Below are positions 15,001-18,000 of a DNA stretch of 19,302 nt, piece by piece. A program made the position numbers. This stretch comes from a virus (Duplodnaviria > Heunggongvirae > Uroviricota > Caudoviricetes): IMG/VR virus record IMGVR_UViG_2671180673_000002; one strand, written 5' to 3'. Position 1 is the stretch's first letter, and each line of letters starts with the position of its first letter.

Positions 15001-18000
15001 CCACCGAACTGAAGTGCAATTCGGTGATCGAGTTCACTGTCACAGAGGTCAACCACACGACCACAGAGACGGCACTGCCCGGCGTCCCTGAGCCAGATAT
15101 GACGCTTGAGGGAAACACGTGCACTGCCACTGACACGACGCTGTTCACCCTTCAGAATATTCACCCGTCGGGTATTCAGTGTTTTGATTCTGCTCTGGAG
15201 TGTACGAAGCTCAGCCATGTAAAATCCCCGTCATATGGCAATCAGTAAAGGAAATAAATATGTCATCGAAAAACCGTACCCGCAGAACCACAACCCGCAA
15301 TATCCGTTTCCCCAATCACATGATTGAACAGATCAACATCGCCCTTGAGCATAAAGGGTCCGGTAACTTTTCAGCGTGGGTTATTGAAGCCTGCAGGAGA
15401 AGGCTGGCAACAGATGCAACGCATCTGCGCCCGGCCAGCATGACAAATAACGAGAAATGAACGTTCGGTTACAGGAGCAGGTACCCACTGTCCTCCAACA
15501 ATATTTCATCTTCATATCCGACGGAACAATACTTACCCTGCCGGGATGTACAGAATAACAACAGAGTGATAATTAATTTCTGATGAAATAATCAGTGTGC
15601 AGAAGGACTAAAGATAAACGTTTTCTTCACGCCTTTACACGGCCTGTCCTTCTCAAATCGCCATTTTGCCATCGCCTTTACAACCTGCTCATCAAACAGA
15701 TGGTGCGGCTCTGAACGAATAAACTCAATTCGGGTGACAGTACCATCAGCACCAATATCAAACCTCACATCAACCCGTCCCTTTATATAATTTGCCGCTG
15801 CATAGGCCGGATATTGTGGTAATGCCTTAACCAACTGTCGGGGCATATCTGTTTTATGTTGCGTACAGCCCATAACCAGAGAAGACAACAAAATAATTAA
15901 CGGAAGATTTCTTTTCATTTTCATTCCCCGCACAGATAAGAATAAGTCTTATTCTAACAATGCCGCCCTGTCGGTCATCAATCCTCTGCTTAATGGCAAC
16001 GACAATTATCCGACTTAAATCACAAATCAGACACATGACATAACAGGGCTTGCGAGGTAACACATCGTCCTGTTTCTTCCACCATCGCACCGGACTGGCG
16101 ACTATGAGGGGACAACGCCGCGCTCCGTTAACGCGGTAAACCCCGGTGTGTATCGTTTTTGATTATCCCCGCACACTCGCGCAGAGGAGTCTCCCTGTCG
16201 GGCTGCGGTCTCTGTTAATGAGGGAATACAGCGACGATACGGCGCATCAGCAAAACTTAGTTCAGGCACTGAGTGCGGATATAGTCCTGTGCCCCTTCCA
16301 GCTGCTTCTGCATTGTCATCAACCGTTCTCTGAGGATGAAATAATCCCGTTCAGCGGTGTCTGCCAGTCGGGGGCCGGTTGCATTATCCACGCCGGAGGT
16401 GCCGGTGGCTTCACGCACGGTACCGGAGCAGGTGGCGTTGATCCGCAGGCGCTTACGACCAGCGGCAACATCAGCACGCAGAGTTTCATTTTCAGCTCTC
16501 GCATCGGCTAATTCCCTCGAGTATCTGGCATCAAGTTCAGCGACATCACGCTGGCGTATCTGCATATCAGTAATTGTCGCGTTCGCCAGTTTCAGCTCAC
16601 TGACTTTTTTATCGCGCTGCGCTTTGTAGGTGATGGCGTTATCGCGGTAATGATTCAGCCCCAGACTAAGCACACCACAGGCTACCAGCAGGACAATAAT
16701 CACCACACACAGAACACGGTTCATATCACCACCAACGGATTGCCCAGACCAGAACAGCAATGGCCACAATACGAATGGCAAATGCCATTGCCCGAATAAG
16801 TTCAGCACTCATCTTTTTAAAGTTCACGATTTCAGCGCAATGACCAGTTTTGCCAGCCCATACAGCATCGGAGACACAGCAATACCAACAGCCACCCACT
16901 TAATAGCAAAAGCCAGCGCTCTGCTGATGTCATCAGTCACTGTCACCCCAGCAGCCCCGACGAAGACAACATCACCCAGGCGAGGGACAGAAAAAGAGCA
17001 ACCAGCATTAGTGAAAATGAAATACCGACAATCACACACAGGACCTTTGCCGGCGTTATGAGTTTGTCTGACATAGCTACCCCTTAATTGCCACAATTAA
17101 CTGGGATACTACCCATAAAAAAGGGATGCTCCAGACCAGCAAAAATTTCCAGTTTGGTAATTGACTAATCATGAGTCGCAACTCCCTAATCAGTTTGCTA
17201 AAATCAATCAAGGCAGCCTCCCATAGCTTACTGCCATAAAAACAAAACCCCGCTTGCTGCCAACAAACGGGGTTTTTACTTTTATTCACTTACATTTTGC
17301 CAGTTCGCAGGATTTCGTGTTATCCGTCCGCCTTGGCCAACGTCATTTATTAGCAAAATATTCTGCTTATCTGTCGATTCCCCAGCACGCCAGCGCGCTC
17401 TCCTGGTCACGACGGGATACCTGACCGTAACAGTTATTTGAGCGAATACGGCAGTCCCTGCCACCGTCCTTAATCCACCAGCGAATCGCCTCACACGCTC
17501 CCCTGCGATCACCTGCATTAATTCGTTTATAAAACGTCGACGGAAAACACTTACCGGGGCCAATGTTGTACGGACAGAATGACGCGATCCCCGCTTTCTG
17601 GGGTTCACTCAATGGCACTCTGATGTTTTTCTCCACCCATGCCAGCGCCTTATCACGCTCAATGGCGTTAACCCGGTCGCATTTTTCCTTCGACAACTTC
17701 ATGCCCGGAACGACAGGTTTGCCATCCACCAGGATGGCACCGCGGCAGATGGTCCAGATACCCGCGCCATCACGGTATGCCGTGGTGTGGTTACCTTCCT
17801 TTTCATCCAGAAACTGGTCGAGAATGTCAGGCGCAGGCGCACCAGCGGCAATCAGCGCCAGAACGGCAGCCGACAGGCCGTATCTGATTTTTGCGTTCAT
17901 GGATATTTATCAGGATTTATCGGTTTCTGCCCACGGACAGGTTTATCTGTTCCGGTCAGTGACTTAAGGTTGTGATTCCGGAGGAGTCTTCAGAGAACCA

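Follow-up and report, generated by a model that had tools for sequence, protein, structure and literature searches.

Four small membrane-peptide genes behind a conserved hairpin in a prophage lysis cassette: candidate modulators of lysis

Overview

The DNA considered here is IMG/VR record IMGVR_UViG_2671180673_000002, a stretch of 19,302 nucleotides from a virus of the Caudoviricetes, here a prophage of E. coli. The whole stretch is referred to as the window. Its lysis region holds, in order, an S21 pinholin gene, a DUF1327/YdfR-like gene, a signal-arrest-release (SAR) endolysin gene, a gap of 640 nucleotides and the spanin genes Rz/Rz1, as established from Pfam and from the RefSeq annotation of identical DNA. 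Four small membrane-peptide genes, pep0, A, B and C, occupy the endolysin-Rz gap behind a hairpin that resembles an intrinsic terminator. The first-pass annotation had described three tandem paralogous peptides at this site. The paralogy of B and C was upheld, whereas that of A was not, and the count was one short, pep0 having been overlooked.

The four genes very probably form a real, mobile membrane-peptide module of the late operon. The explanation favoured in full, a hairpin-led accessory unit of late-expressed membrane peptides that tune lysis, is given a probability of about 0.4. Lysis modulation as the role of the module, taken on its own, is a tentative assignment and is held a little more loosely.

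Coding status of the four genes

On comparative sequence evidence, pep0, A, B and C are genuine conserved genes under purifying selection. This rests on their matches to PHROG families, the conservation of length and reading frame, ratios of non-synonymous to synonymous substitution (dN/dS) mostly well below 1, coding-sequence calls in RefSeq and ribosome profiling (RIBOseq) of XECs191, a member of the A family. The earlier view that these are coding genes rather than chance open reading frames (ORFs) is borne out: many prophages preserve both the frames and the lengths, and synonymous changes dominate in the cores of B and C. Among 13 alleles of the exact array, no more than 6 sites vary within the four ORFs, too few for a test of selection, and the estimates given below were taken from more diverged alleles of other contexts. 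A shuffle test of the ORF tiling discriminates only weakly, as overlapping frames count, and was not relied on.

The peptide genes and the flanking lysis genes all lie on the minus strand. A (17074-16943, 43 residues), B (16946-16824, 40 residues) and C (16812-16726, 28 residues) were found where the first-pass annotation had placed them, and pep0 (17077..17211, 44 residues) lies outside the coordinates that it covered. The genes are tightly packed, with spacers of 2, -4, 11 and 1 nucleotides along pep0-A-B-C-Rz. The overlaps that had been described are present, as GTGA at the A/B junction and TGAtATG at the C/Rz junction, where the ATG of Rz (16724) lies 1 nucleotide past the TGA of C. The strong ribosome-binding site of A, AAGGGG, is also present 5 nucleotides 5' of its ATG.

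The peptides are 28-44 residues long with a grand average of hydropathy of 0.9-1.6. Each contains one hydrophobic stretch of at least 19 residues, with a Kyte-Doolittle mean over 19 residues of 1.9-2.9; a mean of at least 2.0 is reached by only 4.7% of the 85 small ORFs of the window. The C-termini are short, at 1-8 residues (KG, SSSGLLG, KS, RWW). Searches of Pfam, NCBIfam, PADLOC and PDB sequences with the peptides returned no matches. In RefSeq, the Prokaryotic Genome Annotation Pipeline (PGAP) lists A (WP_001280935), B (WP_042004856) and C (WP_032140280) as hypothetical proteins.

pep0 and peptide A

The first gene of the array, pep0, encodes MIDFSKLIRELRLMISQLPNWKFLLVWSIPFLWVVSQLIVAIKG, a predicted single-pass membrane peptide of 44 residues read from a TTG at 17211. 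A Shine-Dalgarno sequence, GGGAGG (17222-17217), lies 5 nucleotides upstream of this codon, and the stop codon is 2 nucleotides ahead of the start of A. An alternative form of 31 residues from an ATG at 17172 is possible. The TTG start is indicated by the match of the 44-residue form to phrog_6632, which runs end to end (positions 1-43 of 45, E 1.4e-13) and is weaker for the 31-residue form (6e-5), and by homologues that begin at the same residue. Those of Salmonella, Citrobacter, Enterobacter, Klebsiella and Providencia start MIDFSKLIRELR, with GTG or ATG at the equivalent position; the GTG at the same start was checked in Enterobacter and Citrobacter. The dN/dS of pep0 against Enterobacter is 0.2-0.3. 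Members of the pep0 family were also observed in R-Rz gaps that carry no annotation, as a partial ORF in phage H-19B (L191 1336-1634) and as a full ORF in Salmonella phage SPN3UB (L192 1542-1940).

Peptide A starts at an ATG and reads MSDKLITPAK followed by VLCVIVGISFSLMLVALFLSLAW, with a single transmembrane (TM) segment and a predicted N-in orientation. It matches phrog_4906 with an E-value of 4.5e-21. The length of the family is almost always exactly 43 residues, down to about 65% identity, around an invariant core, CVIVGISFSLMLVA, and dN/dS is 0.24-0.6 for diverged alleles. The A family is found in 276 phage records, mostly of phages converting for Shiga toxin (Stx), where the gene is often unannotated.

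Ribosome footprints, which had been named as a check on coding, are published for an A-family gene in uninduced O157 Sakai. XECs191 of O157:H7 Sakai, MMGWLMISDKLITLVKSLCVLVGISFLVMLVAIFFSTAWRVLTLSGLVG, was listed among novel translated small genes, with reads per kilobase per million (RPKM) of 30.0 for RNA and 12.6 for RIBOseq and a coverage of 0.55 in lysogeny broth (LB) (Hücker et al. 2017, PMC5597208). The gene is now annotated as ECs_1966 and stands between the antirepressor gene (ant) and Rz in prophage Sp10.

The similarity that had been drawn between A and B (V-VGI--S-ML) did not survive testing, as it is at chance level (shuffle p = 0.10) and the two peptides belong to different PHROGs with no cross-hits. 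Derivation of A from the transmembrane domain (TMD) of Rz, with which it has VLCV in common, was considered and rejected (shuffle p = 0.11).

Peptides B and C

The GTG at 16946 that starts B overlaps the TGA of A and gives a product of 40 residues. Alternative starts are a GTG at 16940 (38 residues, the annotation in phage PhiR5_1) and a TTG at 16979 (51 residues, the PGAP call). B matches phrog_1115 (E 6.4e-25) and also phrog_3246 and phrog_4493; C matches phrog_4493 (E 3.8e-6) and phrog_3246 and ends in AIRWW. No recognisable Shine-Dalgarno sequence precedes C. The paralogy of the two, which share the core RA-AFAI(K/R)-VA and a TM segment, is supported by a shuffle test (p = 0.0007), by the common hits to phrog_4493 and phrog_3246 and by the existence of intermediates. 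A profile search for the B/C family across 1.84 billion proteins gave 20 cluster representatives at E <= 0.001, including P0191, which is B-like and ends in RWW, and P0194 and P0198, which are C-like and carry the MKNGL N-terminus of the family. In P0048 a C-type N-terminus is joined to a B-type TM segment. The family is a continuum of proteins of 35-62 residues.

The commonest B-family form has 48 or 60 residues, (MEKYKRILLRLT)MKNGLELKAPVTDDISRA..., and the family pattern is MKNGLELKAP...AFAIKWVAVGIAVSPMLYGLAKL. B and C of the window are N-terminally shortened versions of the ancestral form of 48/60 residues that begins MKNGLELKAP. The stop of A has been joined to B at the position of codon 21 in the long form, and C uses an alternative short N-terminus, M(S/N)AEL(I/L)RA, which is that of P0048. 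The B core differs from the Salmonella allele by 17 synonymous and 6 non-synonymous changes (dN/dS 0.07), gives 0.05-0.26 in the other comparisons and has variable sites distributed by codon position as 11/3/19. For the C core, dN/dS is 0.11 against the allele of phage GER2.

Translation of B and C in the window is unproven, because both are without the native N-terminus and ribosome-binding site of their family and C is without a Shine-Dalgarno sequence. The same features would be explained if the peptides were largely non-functional passengers, with B, C and possibly others as recombination remnants. Their frames would have stayed open because the array is young and because their translation keeps ribosomes coupled to Rz following insertion of the terminator module. 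Databases contain frameshifted or truncated variants (P0056, P0067, P0140, P0147), ancestral cassettes have R overlapping Rz, and the 13 near-identical alleles vary too little to show selection within the array. However, the short N-terminus of C recurs in P0048, which is common and is coupled through ATGA, purifying selection across the family falls on exactly the part that is retained, and the four ORFs are intact in 580 genomes. A passenger status is considered improbable.

Several observations concern the long B-family genes. Those of L004, L170, L178 and L181 have two starts in the same frame, M1 and M13, and a separate Shine-Dalgarno sequence precedes each of them. The 12-residue extension between them, (E/R)KYKRILLRLT, is strongly basic with about 4 positive charges, and its DNA is near-identical between E. 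coli and Salmonella, though synonymous differences are numerous in the gene body. This leader may be a dual-start motif or an element acting at the RNA level; a search of it by eye for a promoter found no convincing -35/-10 pair. An upstream ORF of 8 codons (MGREVLSL* / MCREVYSL*) with an AGGGAGG motif is present in phage GER2 (L006, about 1700-1730) and in Salmonella (L178, about 2960-3000). It ends in a TGA that overlaps the GTG with which the long B/C form begins, and it may serve as a leader or for coupling. A 554-nucleotide ENA contig carries P0062, a chimeric ORF of residues 1-36 of the S21 pinholin and the C-terminal half of B, joined at W-(A/V)-A-(I/V)-G, which could have arisen by recombination or as an artefact of assembly.

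P0062 and the dual starts, whose basic extension recalls those of holin/antiholin pairs, would also fit an action of the peptides as TMD decoys of the phage's own lysis proteins, with B and C mimicking TMD2 of pinholin S21 in the manner of an antiholin, or as releasin-like helpers of the SAR endolysin. The segment WVAVGIAVSPMLYGL of B resembles S21 TMD2, with a BLASTP E-value of 0.006 as a single comparison and a shuffle p of 0.008. This p-value was one among 20 comparisons and is non-significant after correction, the P21-holin model of Pfam does not match B, no match to DUF2730 was obtained, and B of the window is without the dual-start region. Near-identical B moreover accompanies three other holin families as well as a soluble GH108 endolysin, tracking neither S21 nor SAR endolysins. 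Mimicry of pinholin TMD2 by B was rejected as the principal explanation on multiple testing and on the constancy of B beside other holins, and a decoy function of either kind is considered most improbable.

The hairpin and the transcription of the unit

The hairpin (17244..17276, minus strand) was located by a terminator scan and by folding, and lies upstream of pep0, after the endolysin stop. Its form is CCCCG...CGGGG with 15 pairs, followed by UUUUGUUUUU, a U-run. Its folding energy is -25 kcal/mol (z = -5.19), and none of 200 shuffled sequences was equally stable. From the A-run at its 5' side and the U-run, the hairpin appears to be bidirectional. In all the lysis cassettes examined that carry peptide genes, it separates the endolysin stop from the first of these genes, and its stem varies across these contexts with compensatory changes at 3 of 13 pairs.

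Of the 32 polymorphic sites among the 13 near-identical array alleles, 19 fall in the 195-nucleotide stretch from the endolysin stop to the pep0 ATG (17366-17172), 18 of them at 17293-17351, and the hairpin and peptide genes are almost invariant. This cluster 5' of the hairpin resembles a junction left by recombination or a spacer under relaxed constraint.

The peptides had also been described as type-I-toxin-like. The part of this description that stands is the size (<60 residues) and hydrophobicity of the peptides; a promoter of their own and an antisense RNA did not emerge above chance from the promoter scan and Rfam. Under such a reading the toxins would be silenced by an antisense or divergent small RNA (sRNA) that the bidirectional hairpin terminates, and the A-run 5' of the hairpin could serve to end an RNA read from the plus strand. 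Such an RNA, about 180 nucleotides long, antisense to the start of pep0 and ending at the hairpin, would be expected from a promoter-like site on the plus strand at 17068-17097 (CTGACA-18-CACAAT, with a TG upstream). The site lies inside the pep0/A coding sequence, however, and is specific to this arrangement, and the scan gave 3 promoter-like matches against 4.0 expected by chance. In Rfam, no family passes its gathering threshold in the whole window; in E-value mode over 16600-17450, only noise was found on the hairpin, namely a match to the antitoxin RNA ohsC with E 1.2 and 21.6 bits, far under the gathering score of 50. The genes are also co-oriented and packed in an operon, rather than free-standing with a long 5' untranslated region, and arrays of three unrelated families are atypical of type I loci. 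A type I toxin function is therefore quite improbable.

Distribution and modularity

The array had been read as a set of diverged tandem duplicates. An origin by local duplication is contradicted by the occurrence of the peptides as independent cassettes in other orders (B-A-Rz, ant-A-Rz, C-Rz, pep0-Rz). Homologous small-peptide arrays between R and Rz, for which a search had been recommended, are found in many other prophages in shuffled orders and numbers. Examples are hairpin-B60-A-Rz in phage PhiR5_2 and in L170, ant-pep0'-A-B-Rz in PhiR5_1, ant-A'-Rz in the O104:H4 Stx2a phage P13374 and in Sakai Sp10, hairpin-C'-Rz in GER2 and B60-A-methylase-Rz in L170.

Five unrelated lysis cassettes, from E. 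coli, Salmonella and Enterobacter, have the unit of hairpin and peptide genes behind the endolysin. The first is the S21 + R21 + Rz cassette, as in the window. In the second, Phage_holin_8, holin_3_7 and a soluble GH108 endolysin are followed by the hairpin, a 65-residue TM protein, B38, an A-like peptide of 44 residues and a lipoprotein of 51 residues. The third, from Enterobacter, has Phage_holin_8, holin_3_7 and a GH19 endolysin ahead of the hairpin, pep0 and a spanin pair. The fourth, from Salmonella, has holin_2_3 and a SAR lysozyme followed by the hairpin, B60 and Rz, and in the fifth, from Salmonella phage SPN3UB, the unit is unannotated in the lysozyme-Rz gap. B38 (P0048), the common form of 38 residues, is coupled to the upstream gene by an ATGA overlap. 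In the GH108 cassettes (L174-L177, L181-L184, about 2600-3500), the 65-residue protein has a C-terminal TM segment, B has 38 or 48 residues and the 51-residue lipoprotein is phrog_7528; no Rz or i-spanin was recognisable ahead of the terminase genes in these cassettes.

The exact array, with all four ORFs intact, is present in 580 of 5426 complete E. coli genomes. The hairpin-B-A form is present in 1037 of the 5426 and some part of it in 1885. Among the species-representative genomes of GTDB, the A and B/C families were found in none except for one contig of 328 nucleotides, which is probably a contaminant. The distribution of the families is therefore narrow, being limited to Enterobacterales prophages absent from the GTDB representatives, in agreement with the B/C family having only 20 cluster representatives. 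The module is also dispensable, since it is absent from P21-type cassettes and from Qin of K-12, a phage 21-like cassette in which rrrQ overlaps rzpQ with no insert.

Patchy presence and shuffled order among close relatives, together with a GC content of 0.46 in the module against 0.54-0.55 in R and Rz, would also be expected of moron-type cargo unrelated to lysis. Such cargo could serve in superinfection exclusion, anti-defence or the modulation of host membrane proteins, and the R-Rz gap would be a permissive hotspot. In other prophages the gap holds an ANT antirepressor or a DNA methylase, a lone pep0 lies between Citrobacter tail genes I and J with terminators on its flanks, and the RNA and ribosome signal of the A-family gene in Sakai came from uninduced cultures. 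On the other hand, the unit comes after the endolysin in nearly every context and in all five cassette types, which a generic hotspot explains poorly. The last ORF is only 1 nucleotide from Rz, the consensus scan found no promoter-like site in the stretch from the hairpin to the ORFs, the terminator precedes the genes instead of following them, and PADLOC gave no match. Although a cargo role is doubtful when taken alone, it is nearly as likely as lysis tuning, which is preferred.

Proposed role in lysis

Modulation of lysis timing, one of the roles that the first-pass annotation had suggested, is still the most plausible candidate. In the preferred explanation, lysis tuning, the terminator hairpin would be passed only by the Q-modified, terminator-resistant RNA polymerase of the late operon. 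The peptides would then be made together with the holin, endolysin and spanin, and only late. Expression restricted to the late phase is suggested by the abutment of the ORFs with each other and with Rz, and by the promoter scan, in which no sigma-70-like site was found between the hairpin and the first ORF on the gene strand by a simple consensus scan, a limit that weakens the argument.

The products are predicted to insert in the cytoplasmic membrane with the N-terminus inside, as judged from the distribution of charge. They would be dispensable and have additive effects on the step of lysis that takes place at the membrane, either holin triggering or the collapse of the proton-motive force. 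In this way they would modulate the timing, sharpness or efficiency of lysis without being essential lysis proteins. A tuning rather than essential role is indicated by the variable copy number and dispensability of the genes. The peptides co-occur with four to five holin families, with endolysins of both the SAR and the soluble type and with spanins of more than one kind. One particular phage lysis protein is therefore a less likely target than a generic one, which may be a host membrane protein or the membrane in its energised state.

A number of points weigh against lysis tuning. Searches of the literature gave no functional study on any member of these families, the RIBOseq listing being the only match, and the signal recorded for XECs191 is low (RPKM 12.6) and from uninduced cultures. 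The shortened B and C are without their native start regions, as described above, and A has a dN/dS of about 1 in one comparison. The hosting of the ANT antirepressor and of an N6/N4 DNA methylase in the R-Rz gap, both unrelated to lysis, means that position alone may mark a hotspot of recombination or insertion. The pep0 homologue alone between tail genes I and J of a Citrobacter prophage (L190 3001-3138) indicates that the micro-gene is used as cargo outside the lysis cassette. Lastly, the pep0-A unit has decayed in one myovirus-like prophage, where pep0 is frameshifted and the start of A is ATA. The Citrobacter homologue was further observed to have 45 residues, a GTG start and an RWW ending, to be flanked by hairpins and terminators and to stand beside a lipoprotein of 131 residues.

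A bolder form of lysis tuning would make the hairpin-led unit a self-contained, horizontally mobile cassette that acts independently of holin type and advances or sharpens triggering. The dual starts of long B would then encode a minimal effector/anti-effector pair, and the whole would represent a new class of lysis regulator. This extension is considered unlikely.

Neighbouring genes

The lysis cassette begins with the S21-type pinholin (18319..18534, minus strand), a protein of 71 residues starting MYQMEKITT that matches PF04971 (E 9e-33). It is followed on the same strand by the DUF1327/YdfR-like gene (17964..18314), identified with Pfam, and by the P21-type SAR endolysin (17367..17900), which has 177 residues, the N-terminus MNAKIRYGLSAAVLALIAAGA, a match to PF00959 (E 1.3e-23) and the PGAP annotation 'lysozyme / rrrQ'. 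Beyond the peptide genes lie the i-spanin Rz (16257..16724, minus strand; PF03245, E 7.5e-50) and, embedded in it, the o-spanin Rz1 (16319..16504, minus strand; PF06085, E 1.7e-21).

Downstream of Rz, a gene for a lipoprotein with a TonB_C domain (15592-15933, minus strand; PF03544, E 9.7e-15) has a GC content of 0.44 and is preceded by a promoter-like site at 15978-15951, the sole one on that strand in the region. This gene has the appearance of a classical moron with expression from the prophage. The sequence of the window contains ambiguous bases at 442, 448-450, 478, 499, 517 and 18299, the last of which makes residue 6 an X in the DUF1327/YdfR-like protein.

Significance

The timing of lysis sets the burst size of a phage, and in Stx phages it also sets the time and amount of Shiga toxin release. 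The set of membrane peptides described here is conserved in the lysis cassettes of about one third of complete E. coli genomes and of most Shiga-toxin phages. If the peptides do modulate lysis, a component would be added to the holin-endolysin-spanin model in its best-studied host, and small deletions in inducible lysogens would offer an easy genetic handle. If the unit is a mobile tuning cassette, the peptides would be lysis regulators of most Shiga-toxin phages, with a bearing on the timing of toxin release. As morons unrelated to lysis, they would still be an abundant and unexplored class of prophage micro-proteins.

As far as the literature searched shows, the new elements are pep0 together with its start codon, the inclusion of the conserved hairpin in the unit, the relationship of B and C with the long dual-start forms, and the recurrence of the unit behind unrelated endolysins. 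Annotation is corrected for pep0, with its non-ATG start, for the B forms of 48/60 residues and for unannotated genes in H-19B, SPN3UB and Stx phages.

Comparison with known systems

The families themselves are already catalogued, without names and with one RIBOseq record. PHROG families phrog_6632, phrog_4906, phrog_1115, phrog_3246 and phrog_4493, RefSeq hypothetical proteins and Sakai ECs_1966 represent the same families, and their members agree with the peptides in size and in their place within the lambdoid prophages of E. coli and Salmonella.

Among the classical lysis proteins, spanins are distinguished by a periplasmic coiled-coil domain after the TMD or by a lipobox, neither of which the peptides have, and the true Rz/Rz1 lie downstream. 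Like holins, each peptide has at least one TMD, but none has a charged hydrophilic C-terminal domain or a holin match in Pfam or NCBIfam. Antiholins and dual-start regulators (lambda S107, S21-71, P1 LydB, T4 RI) are likewise membrane proteins in or near lysis cassettes and set the timing of lysis. The long B forms share with them two in-frame starts that differ by a positively charged extension; however, there is no homology, B and C of the window have no dual start and no cognate holin co-varies with the peptides.

Type I toxins (Hok, TisB, ShoB, Ldr, Ibs, ZorO) are of the same hydrophobic, single-TM type of <60 residues and are often found in prophages. The genes described here differ in lying inside an operon, not in a free-standing transcription unit, with no antisense or divergent sRNA detected and no Rfam match. 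Lambdoid morons (lambda bor/lom, HK97 gp15) show the same patchy presence, lower GC content, terminator hairpin nearby and membrane products. Classical morons have their own promoter, a downstream terminator and expression in the lysogen. In the present unit the terminator is upstream, no promoter was detected by the consensus scan and the last ORF is coupled to Rz.

Further points of comparison are LambdaSo Lcc6 (65 residues) and the releasin of Mu, gp25 (99 residues, DUF2730). A releasin consists of an N-out TMD and an acidic cytoplasmic domain of about 70 residues, and is paired with a SAR endolysin. The peptides, in contrast, gave no match to DUF2730 in the Pfam search and have no cytoplasmic domain, and the A and B families also occur with soluble GH108 endolysins. 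Lcc6 and gp25 have cytoplasmic domains of 43-73 residues, are required for lysis and share no sequence similarity with the peptides, which have almost no soluble part, are dispensable, occur in arrays and are found beside soluble endolysins as well. Both are nonetheless, like the peptides, small single-TM proteins of the inner membrane beyond the holin, endolysin and spanin, and both act in pinholin/SAR-endolysin systems at the step of the cytoplasmic membrane. With Mu gp25 and LambdaSo Lcc6, extra small membrane components of phage lysis have a precedent.

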